Position numbers and translations under genes: made by a program
The notes under the pieces: model-generated
What the model was told of the DNA's origin: nothing
The model's input: the letters and a program-made list of their open reading frames with translations, nothing else
The model's database searches: none
From: a virus
UHGV virus genome: UHGV-0142425
DNA length: 64,000 bases
Strand: one strand, 5' to 3'
Shown: positions 4,747 to 29,675 of the stretch, piece by piece
Numbering within the stretch: the stretch's first letter is position 1
Layout of the letters: each line of letters opens with the position of its first letter

Positions 4747-7734
4747 ATGAGCTTAAGCGATCAGGTGGTAATGGCCACCAGCATAGAAACGCTGATCGAG
4801 CTGCTAAAGAACCTGCCCGATTATGGGCGGGTTTCGTATGTGGTGACAGCGAAGGGAGACGAGGTAAAAACGGCATTTGATATCGTCGATGCCTCAGCTC
4901 TTTTGGTATCCAATACTCTGGATGGGAAAATTAATCCAGACTATCCCCAGGAACTTCAGCCGCGCGACCGGACCCGCGCATCCAGCCTTCTTCAGGTCAA
5001 CCAGATATCCAAGGATTTGCGTCCTGCCCAGCTTACCGACTCCGGTTTATCCAGCCATGGCGCGCCGATAATTGGTGAGGACAATGCCGTTGAGTCAGGT
5101 AATGGGCGGACCATGGGGATCATTAAAGCCTATCAGGACGGTAATGCGGATCGGTATCGGGAGTACCTGATTGAACATGCGACCGAATTCGGCATACGAC
5201 CTGAAAAGGTTGAATCAATGACGGCTCCGGTACTGGTGCGCCGCCGGTTAACGAAGGTTGACCGTGTTCAGTTTGCCAAGGACTCAAATATTTCTGATCT
5301 CCAGGAAATGGCAGCCAGTGAAAAGGCTTTTGTTGATGCCGACAGCATAACTCCGGCGATGATGGCGCTGTTTAACCCGTCAGAAAGCGGAGATCTGCTT
5401 AGCCGCAGTAATGACGCGTTTATTCGCGGATTCATGACGCAAGTTGGTGCTACACAGGCGGCTGGACTTGTAACTGAAGATGGGCGACCAACACGGCAAC
5501 TTGTTGACCGGATACAAAACGCGATCTTTGCCAAGGCATATAAGGATGCGCGCTTGGTAAGGATGGTTGCAGAAGAACCTGATCCGGATATGCGTAATGT
5601 TCTGACGGCGCTTAATGCGGCGGCCAATGATTTTGTCCAGATGCAGGCTTTATCAGGAGAAGCGCACAAGCAGGCTGTGACAACTATCGTTGATAGCATT
5701 GAAACAGCGGATAGCCTCGATAAAAAGGCGCTGGCGGCATTGAAAGATGCGGTAGACCTGGTAAGGCAATCGAAGGAGTCAGGCCAACATATTACCGATG
5801 TTATTGCTCAGGGGGATATGTTCAGCGAAACAGCCCCGGAAGTGAAAGCTCTCGCGTTGTTCATTGTCGCGAATAACCGTAGCGCGAAGCGTATGGCCAC
5901 CGCCTTTAAATTGATGGCTCAACGTATCAATGATGAGTTACAGCACCAGGGCCAGGCGCTGGGGGATATGTTTGGCGGTGGTGATGTGTCGTTACAGGAT
6001 ATCCTTCGCCAGGTGTCTCAGGAACTGGAAAACGAAGGCATTCAAGGGATATCCGGCGGTCTTTTCGAGTCCGTTTCCGGCGGTAGTTACAACGGTGTTG
6101 CTCCATATACCAGTTTGCTATTACATCGTGCATCCGGCATCAAAGACATTATTCATCTGATCAGGCTGCTTTCCCGTACAGATCCCCAGGATGAACAGCT
6201 TGTACAAGTGCTTGCGCATTTTGTTCGAATGCCTGTTGCCGACGTGAAAAAATGGTGCCGATTATTCGGTATCAGCAATTCGTTACTTCGCGGCTTGTTA
6301 AATCACGCATCCACTCTTGGGCGCGATGGCTTTGACGAGATAGCGCAGGCGATAAAAAACGGAGATATGCCACCAGCTATTGACTGGTTTTCCATTCGCC
6401 CAACCAGGGTGAAAGCATTCCTTAGCGCGGCGCATTCGGCATCACCATTGACAGAAATGGTTCAGAGGTTGTCGCTCATATTCACAGACCATACCGCGTT
6501 GGGTGATCTGACTCTGGACGAGATGAAAGAAGCCTCCATTCAGTGGGCCGATCAACAAAATGAGGTTAACTCAGACTTCTTGCCAGCATTCAGGAAAGCC
6601 GTTAGTAAAGCGGATGATGCCCGTGGAATTCTGAAGGCATTTAAGGCATTGAAAAGTCGGGTTAATAAACATCTCGGGGATATTGATGGGGTAACGACGG
6701 AAGGCCGGGATATCCTAAAAGAGCACGGCATAACGCCAGAGTTTATTGATGAGATCAGGACTGATATGCAGCGTGAGGTAGTATCGTCCCTGCAAATCGT
6801 AGCCAGAGCGTTGGCGGATGCTAATCCGAAGAGTGCGGCCATTGTTAACCGGGTTATTGGTGATATTGAAGCATCGGAGGGCATGGGGGCGCTGAAACTC
6901 TTCCTTTCGCGAGCGTTTAATCCTAACGGCAATATTCTCCCTGGCATTATTGGTGAGGCTAAAAAGTATGTCAGTGAAGAAGAACTTGAGCAGCTTGACC
7001 AACTACTTAAGCGATTCTCATATAACCCGCAGACACGCTGGCAAATGAATCAGCGAAGTATGGGTTCGGTCCACGAGAAAGTGTTATCTGCCATGAACAG
7101 TGCGATCGCCAACTCATCCGTATCTGAAGAAAAAGCTCTTGAGTGGGCCGACTCTTTTATCACGGAAGAAGTGGAAGAAGCCCGCGCTGGACAGAATGGT
7201 GGGATAGACCTGCGCAAGGAACTTGCTGATATTTATCGCCTGACCGGCGGTAAAATTTCGACCTTATCAAAGGTGGTTCACCACCAGGGAAGGGCATATG
7301 CAAATCTTAATGGTGTTGTTGCTGTCAATTTGAACGATGAAAATGCAAGAGCACTGTGGCACGAGCTGGGTCATCATCTTGAGTACAGTAACCCTGGTTT
7401 GTTAGAGAAAGCCCGGTCATTCCTGAAGGCCAATGTTGAAGGGGATAAGCCATCTTTCGTTAATATCGGTGGGCGTGGCAAGCCTGAATGGTGCTTCAGA
7501 TCTCGATTGAGTAATATTTATATGGCGAAGGTATACCCGCCAGCCTCAGTAAGTAACACCGGGAAAATTCGGCAGAAATCACCGACTATTTCCAAAACGT
7601 CAGCAACGGAAGTATTCTCTATGGCTCTTCAGTTGTATCATGACAAAGAGGCCGCTGCCGCATCACTGATGAATGGTGACGGATTGCTGGAACTGTTATT
7701 AGGTGTGGCAAAGGAGCTAAATAATGCAGATTAA
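4747..7734 (+). CDS. ddrB: DdrB-like large internal head protein
   Basis: 995 aa ORF following ddrA; P1 darA operon synteny. Confidence 0.6.
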   Translation: MSLSDQVVMATSIETLIELLKNLPDYGRVSYVVTAKGDEVKTAFDIVDASALLVSNTLDGKINPDYPQELQPRDRTRASSLLQVNQISKDLRPAQLTDSGLSSHGAPIIGEDNAVESGNGRTMGIIKAYQDGNADRYREYLIEHATEFGIRPEKVESMTAPVLVRRRLTKVDRVQFAKDSNISDLQEMAASEKAFVDADSITPAMMALFNPSESGDLLSRSNDAFIRGFMTQVGATQAAGLVTEDGRPTRQLVDRIQNAIFAKAYKDARLVRMVAEEPDPDMRNVLTALNAAANDFVQMQALSGEAHKQAVTTIVDSIETADSLDKKALAALKDAVDLVRQSKESGQHITDVIAQGDMFSETAPEVKALALFIVANNRSAKRMATAFKLMAQRINDELQHQGQALGDMFGGGDVSLQDILRQVSQELENEGIQGISGGLFESVSGGSYNGVAPYTSLLLHRASGIKDIIHLIRLLSRTDPQDEQLVQVLAHFVRMPVADVKKWCRLFGISNSLLRGLLNHASTLGRDGFDEIAQAIKNGDMPPAIDWFSIRPTRVKAFLSAAHSASPLTEMVQRLSLIFTDHTALGDLTLDEMKEASIQWADQQNEVNSDFLPAFRKAVSKADDARGILKAFKALKSRVNKHLGDIDGVTTEGRDILKEHGITPEFIDEIRTDMQREVVSSLQIVARALADANPKSAAIVNRVIGDIEASEGMGALKLFLSRAFNPNGNILPGIIGEAKKYVSEEELEQLDQLLKRFSYNPQTRWQMNQRSMGSVHEKVLSAMNSAIANSSVSEEKALEWADSFITEEVEEARAGQNGGIDLRKELADIYRLTGGKISTLSKVVHHQGRAYANLNGVVAVNLNDENARALWHELGHHLEYSNPGLLEKARSFLKANVEGDKPSFVNIGGRGKPEWCFRSRLSNIYMAKVYPPASVSNTGKIRQKSPTISKTSATEVFSMALQLYHDKEAAAASLMNGDGLLELLLGVAKELNNAD

Positions 7735-8038
7735 AATCGCAGCGCCATTAGGCGGAGATGCCATTATCGAATTTGATGATAATGAAGAAGTTTCCGGGCG
7801 TTTAAGCATTATCTCCGGTGACATTACCGAGGACATGATCGCTGAAGCCATAGCTGGAGCAAATCCCAATAGCTATATGGGATTCGTTAACACCCTTGAT
7901 GCTCCCGCAAGTGATGTTCTCCGAACGCTGCATCTTTACGCTGGCTGGTTTGTTGATTGGCCAGCAGTAGATGGTGGCGATGAGGACGACGACGACGACG
8001 ATGATTTTGGTGATCATGTAGACCAGATCGTATATTGA
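7724..8038 (+). CDS. small protein with poly-Asp C-terminal tail (DGGDEDDDDDDD)
   Basis: 104 aa ORF overlapping ddrB stop; acidic tract encoded by GAC/GAT run near 7980-8005. Confidence 0.4.
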   Translation: MQIKIAAPLGGDAIIEFDDNEEVSGRLSIISGDITEDMIAEAIAGANPNSYMGFVNTLDAPASDVLRTLHLYAGWFVDWPAVDGGDEDDDDDDDFGDHVDQIVY

Positions 8039-8040
8039 AG

Positions 8041-8066
8041 AAATCCCGCCAATCGGCGGGATTTTT
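8041..8066. terminator. rho-independent terminator hairpin (AAATCCCGCC-AATC-GGCGGGATTT + T-run), usable from both strands
   Basis: Perfect 10-bp stem followed by TTTTT; lies between convergent operons. Confidence 0.7.
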
Positions 8067-8069
8067 ACC

Positions 8070-9164
8070 TCACGAGAAGCTCTTTTCTGATGTCAGCCAA
8101 CAGTGCTCGTGCAAATCTCTTGGTGGTTTTTCGACAAATGCCTCTTCAGCCACATCCCGCCAGGGAATTTGTTTAGCCCATTCAGCTATAGCGTTATGGT
8201 TTGCTGAGAATAACGGTATTGTATAGGCTTTCAGCCAGTCTAATGTGCTGGAGTTGTGTTTTTGAGCGTGATGTTTCGCATGGTGTTTGGCGATCACGAT
8301 CGTAGGCACTACCCATTTACTACCGTCAGTCATTGTGAAGTGCATATTACGGGGAACAGATGATTTTTCCATCAACTCCCGAATCCCAGGGAATTTCCCC
8401 AAGATCAATCGGCGATATTTATCGCTATTGCACCCACCAAACTCTTTGGCTTTATATTCAAGATATGCTTCAGAAACGAGAGGTGAATCCTCTGTGCTGA
8501 GAGTTATAGCCGTGAAAATACCAGCAGGAGTGTTCTCACTATGGGCCAACCGGTGATGCGAATCATAAAAATACCCTTTCTCTCGTTCCGATGGTTTCGA
8601 CAGCAACAGCAGGCGCGAATCATAACCGGTCAAATTGCCTGTTATCACAGCATGAGCGCGGTCGCTGATTTCTGCCGCGTTAATAACGATGAAAAGATCA
8701 TGCGGCCCAGTAAAACCAGCCAGAGATTCTTCGTTATTCAGACAATAGTTTAAATATACACATCCCCATGCTTCACTGATATGTACCAACCCTTTTTCAG
8801 GGTGCAGTTTGAAATGATTGCCAAGAAAAGGGTGTTTCTTGATAACCTGCGCCCAATAACAGCACATATAGTCAATTATATTGTTTCGACTATCGTTAAT
8901 AGCAGGAGAAACAACCACTGTACGGGAACACGAATACAGTATTGTTTGCAGGATGCTAATCACTGCCACAATAGAGGTTTCCCCAATACCATGTGGTGTG
9001 GTGGCAGTGACTTTGGCTCCGGTGTTCTTTATCGCGTTAATAATTTTTGCTTGATGAGGTGTTAACTCAATATCAAGCAACTCTTTCGCTGCCAGTTCCC
9101 AATTGTCTTTATACTGTTCTATCAGTGCTAACCAGGCAGGTTCATTCTGTATACGATTAGTCAC
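8070..9164 (-). CDS. terminase large subunit (PacB) N-terminal ATPase-domain paralog with degenerate Walker A/B
   Basis: 364 aa; collinear similarity to PacB in this window (e.g. ITGNLTGYDSRLLLLSKPSEREKGYFYDSHHRLA vs [33 protein letters not shown]) but Walker A GHGTGKS is PHGIGET and Walker B IIDEAS is VINAAE; no nuclease domain. Confidence 0.6.
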   Translation of the reverse strand: MTNRIQNEPAWLALIEQYKDNWELAAKELLDIELTPHQAKIINAIKNTGAKVTATTPHGIGETSIVAVISILQTILYSCSRTVVVSPAINDSRNNIIDYMCCYWAQVIKKHPFLGNHFKLHPEKGLVHISEAWGCVYLNYCLNNEESLAGFTGPHDLFIVINAAEISDRAHAVITGNLTGYDSRLLLLSKPSEREKGYFYDSHHRLAHSENTPAGIFTAITLSTEDSPLVSEAYLEYKAKEFGGCNSDKYRRLILGKFPGIRELMEKSSVPRNMHFTMTDGSKWVVPTIVIAKHHAKHHAQKHNSSTLDWLKAYTIPLFSANHNAIAEWAKQIPWRDVAEEAFVEKPPRDLHEHCWLTSEKSFS

Positions 9165-9951
9165 TTTCCACCTCTTCCGTGGTGTTTTCTTGCAGTTCTG
9201 TTAATGCAGCACGACACAGGTTCCGGGCCTTGGCTATAGCCACACTTTTGACTTCATCTGTCATCGTGCAGGTAATGTACTGATCGAGTTCTTCAGCGCG
9301 GATGATGCTTTTGCCAATCAGAAACTGTATTTGCCAGAGCAGATCGGCATCCATAATCAGAATTTCTGCCGGGCCTTCAGGGCCAGCCGGGAAGGAAACA
9401 TAAGACTGTTTGCCAAGGCCGATAACTCGACAACTTGCTTCAAGAATTGCGCGCTTGAGGTCTGACTTTGTAACTGAAACAGGTTGATTTTCACCTGCGA
9501 TTACGCCGTTGACATGGATGTGGAAGGGCATGTAGCTTGAAATTCGCTCTACTTTCCATACGCCAGCAAGCGATCCTTCATGCAGCACAATGGGGGTAAC
9601 AGCGAGTTTCATCTCACCATATAACTGCTGGCAGATAGCTGGATTGCTGAATACATCCAAAGGTTCACACTCAAACAGCGGTGCAATCTGCATGAGGTCC
9701 ATCATGGTCATACCTGGGGTACGAGCGGTAATGAATCTGCGCATGCCAGTATCCATTGTTCGCCAGATAGCTACACCATGCTTTTTGCTCACTTCTTCAG
9801 TAAAGCCAAGGTGGCACATGATGGTTTTTTCGATAGCCAGATCAGAGATAGAAACCTTTTCGCCTGGCACTCCATCATTATTGATGGTCACTTCGACACT
9901 CTGGCCATTACGTAGGCGGTATTGAATGGTTTTAGTATTTTGTGCTGTCAT
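9157..9951 (-). CDS. hypothetical protein, co-operonic with the PacB-like paralog
   Basis: 264 aa ORF whose stop overlaps the downstream gene start; no recognisable motif. Confidence 0.45.
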   Translation of the reverse strand: MTAQNTKTIQYRLRNGQSVEVTINNDGVPGEKVSISDLAIEKTIMCHLGFTEEVSKKHGVAIWRTMDTGMRRFITARTPGMTMMDLMQIAPLFECEPLDVFSNPAICQQLYGEMKLAVTPIVLHEGSLAGVWKVERISSYMPFHIHVNGVIAGENQPVSVTKSDLKRAILEASCRVIGLGKQSYVSFPAGPEGPAEILIMDADLLWQIQFLIGKSIIRAEELDQYITCTMTDEVKSVAIAKARNLCRAALTELQENTTEEVESD

Positions 9952-10148
9952 AGTCTTTTCTCTGCTTAAAAACTGATGTATTGCGCCTTCAGGTTGGTTA
10001 GGAATGTTTTCCCACCAGCGAAAGCAATATCTCGGGGTGTTCTATTCGTTAAAAGCGCGTGCCATTGCCAACTTTGGCGTTTTTGAGCGAGTTCGTGCTT
10101 TTGTCGGCGTCTGGACCACCGCTTTTCTTTCAGTCGTTTTTTACACAT

Positions 10149-10637
10149 TCAAAACGGAATATCGTCGTCAAAGTCCATTGGAGGTTCGTTATTGGCGTTG
10201 CTCTGAGGTTTACCGCCACCACTGTATTGCTGGTGGTTTTGAGGTTGGTTTGATTGCCCCCAGCCATTTGGGGACTGTGAATCGTCACGGCGAGCGCCGA
10301 TCATTTGCATGGTGCCGCCCTGGCTGACGATAATTTCCGTCGTGTAACGTTCTACACCGGCGTCATCTGTCCACTTACGGGTTTTAAGTTTCCCTTCGAT
10401 GTAGACCTGAGAACCTTTTCGTAAATATTCACTCGCAATTTCAGCAAGTTTCCCGAACAAAACGACTTTATGCCATTCTGTTTGCTCTTTCTGTTGGCCC
10501 GTTTGCTTGTCGCGCCATGATTCATTCGTTGCGATGCTGAGTCTTCCGACCGCGCCGCCATTTGGTATATACCTGATCTCCGGGTCTTGCCCCAGGGTAC
10601 CAATCAGGATGACTTTGTTTACACCGCGTTGTGCCAC
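10149..10637 (-). CDS. ssb: single-stranded DNA-binding protein
   Basis: 162 aa; OB-fold N-terminus, Gly/Gln-rich linker, acidic tail DFDDDIPF. Confidence 0.9.
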
Positions 10638-10656
10638 TTATCTTACCTAATAAAAT

Positions 10657-10673
10657 AAATTAATTAGAGCAAT
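10657..10673. promoter_or_regulatory. C1 repressor operator (AAATTAATTAGAGCAAT, 1 mismatch to the 17-bp consensus)
   Basis: Match to the P1 operator consensus ATTGCTCTAATAAATTT (reverse orientation); upstream of ssb and lyz. Confidence 0.6.
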
Positions 10674-10806
10674 AATGTATATCTTTGAAACGTAGCTAAC
10701 AAGTGATTTGCATTATCCTGTGCCTTCTAAAGGGATCGAGTCAGTCGGTATTGGCTGTGAATGGGTGTTTGTCCTGGAGCGTAAAAAATTCGCTTATGAG
10801 GTCTTT

Positions 10807-28190: not shown

Positions 28191-29675
28191 TTATTCATTA
28201 AGCCATGCCAGAGCTTCATCAACCTGCGCTTCGTCTTCGACGCTAAGCACTTCATCCTGGGGAACATAATCCGCCAGCATAGCGAAACAATATGTATCCC
28301 AATGGTCTGGTGAGTGCAGGTTGAGTTTTTTCTTCATATCCTCCTTACTCATCACCTTCCATTGACCTGCGGAGTTAATCCCTACAGGGATTTTCGACGC
28401 TTCCTCAATAGTTTCATTACCCTTATCCAGTCTCATACGACCAGATTTTACGGCCTCTGCGGCTTGAACGTTGGCATAAGCACGTTTATCAAAGTACAGG
28501 CTCTTATCTTCACGGCTATGCATCTTTTTACCCCAGCGTATACGCTGTACGGTAATACCATAATACTCGTACATCAGATCCGCCGTTGCTTTACCCAAGC
28601 CATCGCCGTCTATCGCTATGGTGATATTTGGGAATCGCTCAGGATTGCATTCTGCGAAAATTTTGGCGGCAAGCTGCGTTTCTGTAACGTCTGTGTATTC
28701 CAGCATTCGATAGTTGATTACACGGCGTTTATTTCGCTGGCCGGACACCATCATGATATTGATAACGGACTTATCCCGTCCCGTACCACCAGCAACGTCC
28801 ACACATGCAAGCCAGCCCCATCCTTTGGCAATCTTGACTTTCCGCCGCGTTGCACGTTCAACCTCATCACGTCCAAGAAGGAAGCCATCCTGTGATTTAG
28901 GGAATAGGCCGCGTACCTTAATCATGTACATAGGGTTATCACGCCCGCCGTACTCCGCCAGCTTCATTTTGATAAATGCTGGCGTTACCAGCGGTGATTC
29001 CTCACTGTTAAGCGTGATCGCCGTATAAACGCCATCAGGGTTACCAGGACGCTTGGCCAGTTTATGGTGTGTATCGTAGAAATAGCCGCTTGGGCGTGTA
29101 GGCTGTGACAGTAATAAGATGCGGTTATCCTGTCCGGTAAGAGCACCGGTGATGATACCGAAAGCTCTATCACTGACACCGGAGGCTTCATCGATAATAT
29201 ACAGAAGATGATCTGCGTGTTCACCGGCGAGAGCTTCTTCACTTCCCAAACGAAAGCCCTTCGGTACTACAGTCCATACACCTTTACCAGTAACCTCATA
29301 GAAAGCGGTTTCTGTCAGAACAAAATAATCAGCAAGCCATGGGAAACGGCTGGTGGCAGTAGCCCAGTTTATCTTGATGTACTTGAATATACCGGTCATT
29401 ACCTGCTGAATTTTGTTCGCAACGATAATGGCGCGGGCACCGGGATACATGATTATGAACAACATGATCATGATAGAAGTCATGTCTGATTTCCCGGTAC
29501 CGTGACCAGACGAAACAGATGTCTTGCTACCCTGTTCCTGCACAGACTCAATAATCAGATCCTGCTGCCAGGTAGGTGTTTTGCCGAACAAAACATCAGC
29601 GGCAGCAATCCAGTCATAACGATATAGCGCCACCAGCTCGCGCCAACGTGGATCCGTTACGCAACTTCTGGCCAT
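28191..29675 (-). CDS. pacB: terminase large subunit PacB
   Basis: 494 aa; Walker [10 protein letters not shown], Walker [12 protein letters not shown]-terminal nuclease domain. Confidence 0.9.

Follow-up and report, generated by a model that had tools for sequence, protein, structure and literature searches.

Among the proteins of tailed phages, the large terminase (TerL) is the most conserved, and it is a main target of bacterial pattern-recognition immunity. The pocket of the Avs2 receptor contacts terminase-bound ATP, and this receptor is engaged by the TerL-ATPase-like protein vs.8 of phage T4 and by Ksap2, which resembles the TerL ATPase weakly; Upx also senses the terminase ATPase core (PMC13601566, PMC11564622). 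T4 vs.8 is an uncharacterised protein that activates EcAvs2 (PMC13601566), and Ksap1 and Ksap2, two small accessory proteins of phages, are triggers of Avs2 (PMC11564622, PMC13601566). In P1-like phage-plasmids, the interval between ssb and hxr has been described as the variable region 'RD-2' (PMC6906374) or 'region 2' (PMC9603915), such regions being known cargo sites, and a terminase paralog is not mentioned in these descriptions (PMC6906374, PMC9603915). The P1 genes isaA and isaB are non-essential as judged by CRISPRi (PMC10695390). Here we describe a 364-amino acid (aa) protein encoded in this interval of a 64,000-nt stretch of virus genome UHGV-0142425 (hereafter, the window), which represents a P1-like phage-plasmid. 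The protein (8070..9164; all features in the window lie on the minus strand unless stated otherwise) descends from a PacB-type large terminase and has kept the TerL ATPase fold, and we refer to it as a pseudo-terminase. No paper on a PacB paralog, on a pseudo-enzyme derived from a terminase or on a terminase decoy was found in a literature search.

BLASTP comparison of the pseudo-terminase with the bona fide PacB of the window (28191..29675; 494 aa, intact Walker A and B motifs and nuclease part) showed 35% identity over 276 columns, aligning residues 1-272 with residues 1-274 (E 3e-56). Thus, the paralogy to the N-terminal ATPase domain of PacB that a preliminary description of this DNA had proposed is significant, and the blocks quoted in its support, ITG.LTG.D.R.LLLS.P...GYFYD.HH.LA and TAITL..E.SPLV, are common to both proteins. 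An AlphaFold2 (AF2) model of the pseudo-terminase, based on 29 sequences, had a mean predicted local distance difference test (pLDDT) score of 86, with values above 90 over residues 10-260, and Foldseek matched this model to solved TerL ATPase domains only, with Sf6 gp2 as the best match (1e-9) followed by P74-26, D6E and T4 gp17. The TerL-type ATPase-fold domain defined by the model and the Foldseek matches spans residues 1-262 (8379..9164). The catalytic motifs of this domain are degenerate. The Walker A motif reads PHGIGET (residues 57-63; 8976..8996) where PacB has GHGTGKS, with K62 replaced by E, as had been noticed before, and S63 replaced by T. The acidic pair of the Walker B motif is also gone, as previously claimed, although the alignment then given (IIDEAS to VINAAE) was one residue off; in the correct register LYIIDE of PacB is opposite LFIVIN, with D162 replaced by I161 and E163 by N162, the whole motif being LFIVINAA against LYIIDEAS (residues 157-164; 8673..8696). 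The C-motif after strand 4, SQPT(R) in PacB, is altered to SKPSE (residues 189-193; 8586..8600) and varies across the clade of related proteins described below. No similarity to PacB was detected by BLASTP past residue ~272 and, therefore, the RNase H-like nuclease domain is missing. Taken against the five features of a functional TerL, the protein retains the ATPase fold and lacks four, namely Walker A, Walker B, the C-motif and the nuclease domain. Judged from its sequence, it is a pseudo-enzyme that has lost all the residues for ATP binding and hydrolysis. With its fold and many of its surface-forming motifs retained but the ATP-handling residues gone, the protein would be unable to use ATP and would have to work by binding rather than by catalysis.

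The absence of the nuclease domain had been read earlier as a plain loss. The absence stands, but a separate domain of ~100 aa (8073..8378; PHROG 17928) has replaced the nuclease domain, which was not merely lost. This C-terminal domain is predicted to consist of a beta-hairpin and three helices (AF2, pLDDT 56-77). It also exists free-standing, as a protein of 123 aa (P0117), and in P0024 (L014 10001..10741, GCA_024867085.4) it lies N-terminal, fused to a pseudo-terminase ATPase region in an ORF that looks truncated; this N-terminal fusion shows that the domain is an independent module. Over its length (residues 2-364 on a 359-position profile) the pseudo-terminase matched PHROG 5902, a family of unknown function, with an E-value of 7e-179, and since PacB matches the same profile, this family mixes the two kinds of protein. 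There were zero matches in Pfam and NCBIfam for the pseudo-terminase, its C-terminal domain or IsaA, the product of the adjacent gene, and PADLOC assigned no defence family to the pseudo-terminase or IsaA at E-values up to 1.

A HMMER search of 1.84 billion representatives returned 691 relatives, mostly terminases of ~500 aa. Among the closest relatives were a full-length protein of 366 aa (P0004; 49% identity), proteins of 244-266 aa that end just after the ATPase domain, and one 444-aa form with a different tail. About 13 pseudo-terminases came from divergent P1-like phage-plasmids, and the catalytic residues are gone in all of them. For the first tree and motif check, 11 pseudo forms were aligned jointly with 21 full-length relatives. 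The results showed that G(H/T)GTGK[ST], DEAS and SQPT are present in all 21 full-length relatives, whereas the Walker A lysine, the Asp-Glu pair and SQPT(R) are lost from all 11 pseudo forms checked, which retain QQ, EExLAG, G[YF]FYxSHH and SxE[DE]SP[LF]V. In the phylogeny of these terminase-like paralogs, a check that the preliminary description had suggested, the 11 pseudo forms made up one clade apart from the intact PacBs that these phages also encode, with 84% neighbor-joining bootstrap support and subject to the caveat of long-branch attraction. Identity among the pseudo forms, compared with that among real TerLs, was 41 versus 35% over the first 50 residues and 44 versus 46% over the last 60 residues (lid segment), and the catalytic core was relaxed (24 versus 41% and 41 versus 62%). 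Relative to the MH422554 allele, the pseudo-terminase had a dN/dS of 0.26 and isaA one of 0.10. In addition, distant lineages still carry full-length ORFs of the same domain order at 49-53% identity, and each informative contig turned out to be a divergent P1-like element that encodes a C1-type repressor, a Cre-like recombinase and RepL as well as a PacA and a PacB of its own. The earlier view of a duplicate retained as an intact ORF is borne out as far as intactness and purifying selection go; rather than a simple duplicate arisen in this genome, however, the sequence comparisons make the pseudo-terminase a member of an old clade and not a recent copy. A protein of 268 aa that consists of the ATPase domain only and has degenerate Walker A and B motifs (P0051; L028 644..1450, on a contig of 2.5 kb) nests in a different terminase subclade, and this grouping suggests a second, independent origin of a dead paralog. 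The contigs of P0051, P0029 and P0009 were too short to inform on gene neighborhoods.

Among individual alleles, that of phage vB_EcoM-813R1 (L004 1888..2958) is frameshifted ~30 codons before its end and carries a different C-terminal tail, and truncated fragments of the pseudo-terminase are present in the databases (P0005, P0038, P0054). The homolog in MH422554.1 (L002 1865..2959) is labelled 'terminase large subunit' in GenBank, which is misleading given its dead ATPase site and lack of a nuclease domain. On the side of the PacB-type terminases, P0033, P0052 and P0057 contain an apparent intein of ~150-340 aa inside Walker A (SGHGCF...HNTGKS).

The surrounding region of the window (7700..10700) is 95-97% identical to Punavirus records. 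The gene order on the minus strand is ssb (10149..10637), a 264-aa ORF (9157..9951) and the 364-aa ORF of the pseudo-terminase, flanked by lyz at one end and by hxr/ddrB at the other. The two ORFs overlap as had been reported: the pseudo-terminase gene begins with a GTG codon and shares 8 nt (GTGACTAA) with the stop of the upstream ORF, a translational overlap of stop and start that is conserved in relatives. Neither a sigma-70-like promoter nor an Lpa-type late promoter box was found before the 264-aa ORF or the pseudo-terminase gene, including in the conserved 197-nt spacer that separates ssb from the former (9952..10148). A C1-operator-like site (ATTGCTCTAATTAATT, 10658..10673) is located upstream of ssb, at the position of Ossb/Op21 in the P1 annotation. 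Given this operator-like site and the lack of nearer promoters, the transcription unit is most likely ssb-isaA-pseudo-terminase, early and C1-repressed, with ssb as its probable first gene, and the two-gene operon proposed at first, although correct in its overlap, was probably drawn too narrowly. The strong terminator placed at its end corresponds to a hairpin (8041..8064) 3′ of the pseudo-terminase stop codon, with a core stem of -20.7 kcal/mol (z -5.3), but this hairpin lies between the pseudo-terminase gene and hxr, is bidirectional and shared by both convergent genes, and has its better U-tract on the opposite (hxr) strand. Dar/Ddr anti-restriction genes adjoin the locus. The DdrB homolog (4747..7734, plus strand, 995 aa) contains a HELGHH (HExxH-type) motif, which fits the 'possible metallopeptidase' remark in the P1 record.

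The 264-aa partner, for which no function had been proposed, is P1 IsaA: the two proteins are 96.6% identical over 264 aa and their genes occupy the same place beside ssb. The IsaA of the window is 47% identical to the L006 homolog, and its AF2 model had a pLDDT of 84. IsaA is more widespread than the pseudo-terminase and occurs without it in P1, SJ46 and Pantoea elements. In P1, IsaA is annotated with 320 aa because the frame continues upstream for another 56 aa (L001 4341..4508), an extension found open in P1 alone. Since TAA/TAG stops close this frame in the window (9966..10148) and in MH422554, and distant homologs begin at the ATG of the 264-aa form, the P1 annotation is probably too long. 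The DNA of reference P1 aligns with the window as far as 9141 and again from 8036 downwards, leaving 8037..9140, which is nearly coextensive with the 364-aa gene, without a P1 counterpart; the pseudo-terminase gene is absent in P1, and IS1 and the unrelated isaB stand in its place. The guess that this interval is where P1 carries IS1, and that it is a variable region, was therefore right, the region being RD-2 or region 2 (PMC6906374, PMC9603915). Three relationships were considered and rejected: IsaA as a paralog of the small terminase PacA, which would have made the pair a duplicated pacAB (the sequences have no similarity); P1 IsaB as what is left of the pseudo-terminase (the sequences are dissimilar, and 8037..9140 has no counterpart in P1 DNA); and P1 Mat as a pseudo-terminase, an idea taken from a clade member adjacent to ref (no similarity).

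A scan of IMG/VR yielded 77 loci, 32 of which encode the form with the C-terminal domain. The E. coli P1 group (20 loci) has the order ssb-isaA-pseudo-terminase-hxr, with a Tad2-like gene between ssb and isaA in 5, and a second group at ~50% identity (12 loci) has dUTPase-isaA-pseudo-terminase-doc, with a Tad2-like gene after the dUTPase gene in 11. Across the two flanking contexts the C-domain form thus follows isaA in 32/32 loci, and in 16/32 the Tad2-like gene lies just upstream. The product of this neighbor matched solved Tad2 anti-Thoeris proteins with an E-value of 3e-13; it is a DUF2829 protein of ~225 aa whose C-terminal half resembles solved Tad2 and AcrIIA7 structures. The DUF2829 gene was seen either within the ssb-isaA spacer or directly before isaA in L026 (2547..3224), L036, L038, L043 and L046, and in the second group (group B) in L050-L059 and L099; in phage Ro157c2 it is found in the isaA-hxr slot instead of the more usual position between ssb and isaA. 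The window lacks this gene and has in the corresponding slot the 197-nt spacer, which is 99% conserved. Of 509 P1-like plasmids in PLSDB that match the region, 119 (~23%) carry it complete with the pseudo-terminase. In other plasmids the isaA-hxr slot is empty or holds either a HipA-family kinase gene or IS1 with isaB; the kinase (434 aa, yjjJ) was observed in many P1-like plasmids, e.g., at L027 665..1969 (CP057799.1). The short clade members (~260 aa) adjoin other genes, namely ref, a radical SAM gene and small ORFs, and not Tad2. In L009 (9336..10792), L010 and L011, a short pseudo-terminase of 263 aa overlaps the stop of ref, which encodes a RecA-dependent nuclease, by 4 nt, a coupling unlike that with isaA.

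As to function, we tentatively regard a role as a non-catalytic PacB mimic in counter-defence as the most likely one. The pseudo-terminase would mimic the ATPase domain of PacB through binding only; it would be made early, before PacB, and would occupy or mask a host immune sensor of the terminase ATPase domain of the Avs1-3 or Upx type. Such a sensor would be bound without display of the bound ATP and the nuclease surface that sensors use, so that a mimic lacking ATP could either bind sensors without activating them or hide PacB from them, possibly assisted by the C-terminal domain, IsaA or both. This narrower proposal, that the pseudo-PacB, perhaps together with IsaA and the C-domain, blocks or shields against the terminase-sensing receptors Avs1-3 and Upx, is the more doubtful of the two. 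Counter-defence is favored because the gene of the pseudo-terminase is accessory, early and patchily distributed, because it lies in a cargo hot spot with a Tad2-like cassette and Dar/Ddr genes as neighbors, and because vs.8 and Ksap2 offer a precedent; the Tad2-like neighbor and the hot spot appear to favor it at least as strongly as a role in packaging. Several points weigh against it. The case leans on guilt by association, which is a weak kind of evidence, and a mimic that binds Avs would normally activate the sensor, vs.8 and Ksap1/2 being triggers and not inhibitors. No anti-Avs decoy was found in a search of the literature, and neither the pseudo-terminase nor IsaA gave a signal with PADLOC, Pfam or NCBIfam. 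The short clade members have neighbors other than Tad2, and the confinement of the clade to phages with a PacB-type terminase would fit a packaging partner equally well. If the narrower proposal is true, it would be the first case of a decoy-type inhibitor that acts on bacterial pattern-recognition receptors and is made from the very protein they detect, and P0051, as a second independently derived dead paralog, would hint that the decoy solution evolved more than once.

Modulation or poisoning of packaging is possible as well, and we consider it nearly as likely as counter-defence. The dead ATPase domain would sequester PacA or cap PacB rings, given that surfaces for PacA or a neighboring PacB would be kept whereas DNA cutting, translocation and portal docking would be lost; judging from other terminases, the portal-docking part would have gone along with the nuclease domain. 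As an outcome, the phage might delay cleavage at its own pac site during the early part of lytic growth, or it might sabotage the packaging of a P1-like competitor resident in the same cell. This would agree with the restriction of the gene to P1-like elements, each of which has a PacB from the same subfamily, with the conservation of the N-terminal and lid segments around a relaxed catalytic core, with the loss of the nuclease domain, and with a predicted early expression that would fall before, or together with, the synthesis of the pacase. It is harder to reconcile with a gene that is found in only ~23% of P1-like plasmids and sits in a cargo hot spot rather than near pacAB, or with reference P1, which packages normally without it, and our search of the literature found no precedent for a phage that regulates its own terminase through a dead paralog.

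Reuse of the fold in early DNA metabolism, as a non-catalytic DNA- or protein-binding factor acting with SSB, Ref, dUTPase or RdgC-type functions, seems unlikely. The neighbors are indeed all early genes (ssb in the window, the dUTPase gene in group B and the overlapping ref in L009-L011), but they vary by lineage, a DNA-binding motif was not identified in the pseudo-terminase, and patchy spread at a hot-spot site would be unusual for a replication factor. Slightly less probable still is that the gene is host-benefiting defence or exclusion cargo, in which the fold, alone or with IsaA, would sense or bind the small terminase or portal of unrelated phages. The HipA-family kinase found in the same slot of other plasmids and the standing of the P1-like variable regions as known cargo sites (PMC6906374, PMC9603915) would suit such a role; however, the protein has no PADLOC match and no effector domain, and its C1-repressed context implies that it is probably little expressed in the lysogen. 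That the gene is a decaying, functionless fragment of a duplicated pacB heading for loss, as the frameshifted C-terminus in L004 and the fragments P0005, P0038 and P0054 might suggest, is very improbable and largely refuted by the pattern of conservation, i.e., full-length ORFs of unchanged domain order at 49-53% identity in distant lineages, a dN/dS of 0.26, and conserved non-catalytic motifs and isaA start overlap.

A conserved, catalytically dead, nuclease-less terminase copy kept by a whole phage lineage would be a new kind of phage pseudo-enzyme, one that the databases name 'hypothetical' or, wrongly, 'terminase large subunit'. Whether its role lies in packaging control or in immune evasion, the biology would be new. 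P1 is a genetic workhorse and its reference strain lacks the gene, which makes effects on packaging, transduction, plasmid competition and escape from Avs/Upx accessible by add-back. In comparison with the systems known so far, T4 vs.8 is similar in being an accessory phage protein that is paralogous to the terminase ATPase domain of its own phage and lacks the nuclease, but unlike the pseudo-terminase it has intact Walker A (GGRQSGKS) and Walker B (LYIIDEP) motifs and derives from a T4-type terminase; membership of the same family was rejected at an hhalign probability of 5%. The packaging-interference proteins of satellites, SaPI Ppi and PICI Rpp, are non-catalytic and bind terminase subunits, which is the kind of mechanism that a packaging modulator would use; they differ in being satellite-encoded, in targeting the small terminase and in being unrelated to TerL in sequence and fold. 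The isaA-IS1-isaB region of P1 is the same ssb-hxr locus, its IsaA corresponding to the 264-aa gene product, and the pseudo-terminase, which reference P1 lacks, would explain what IS1 displaced in laboratory P1. The closest counterpart is P1 PacB itself, which is homologous over the whole ATPase domain, has the same fold and shares QQ, EExLAG, GYFYDSHH and SxEDSPLV with the pseudo-terminase. The pseudo-terminase lacks the Walker A Lys/Ser, the Asp-Glu pair, SQPTR and the nuclease domain and has an extra C-domain of ~100 aa, and it is encoded in an early accessory locus, whereas PacB belongs to the lpa-pacA-pacB operon.

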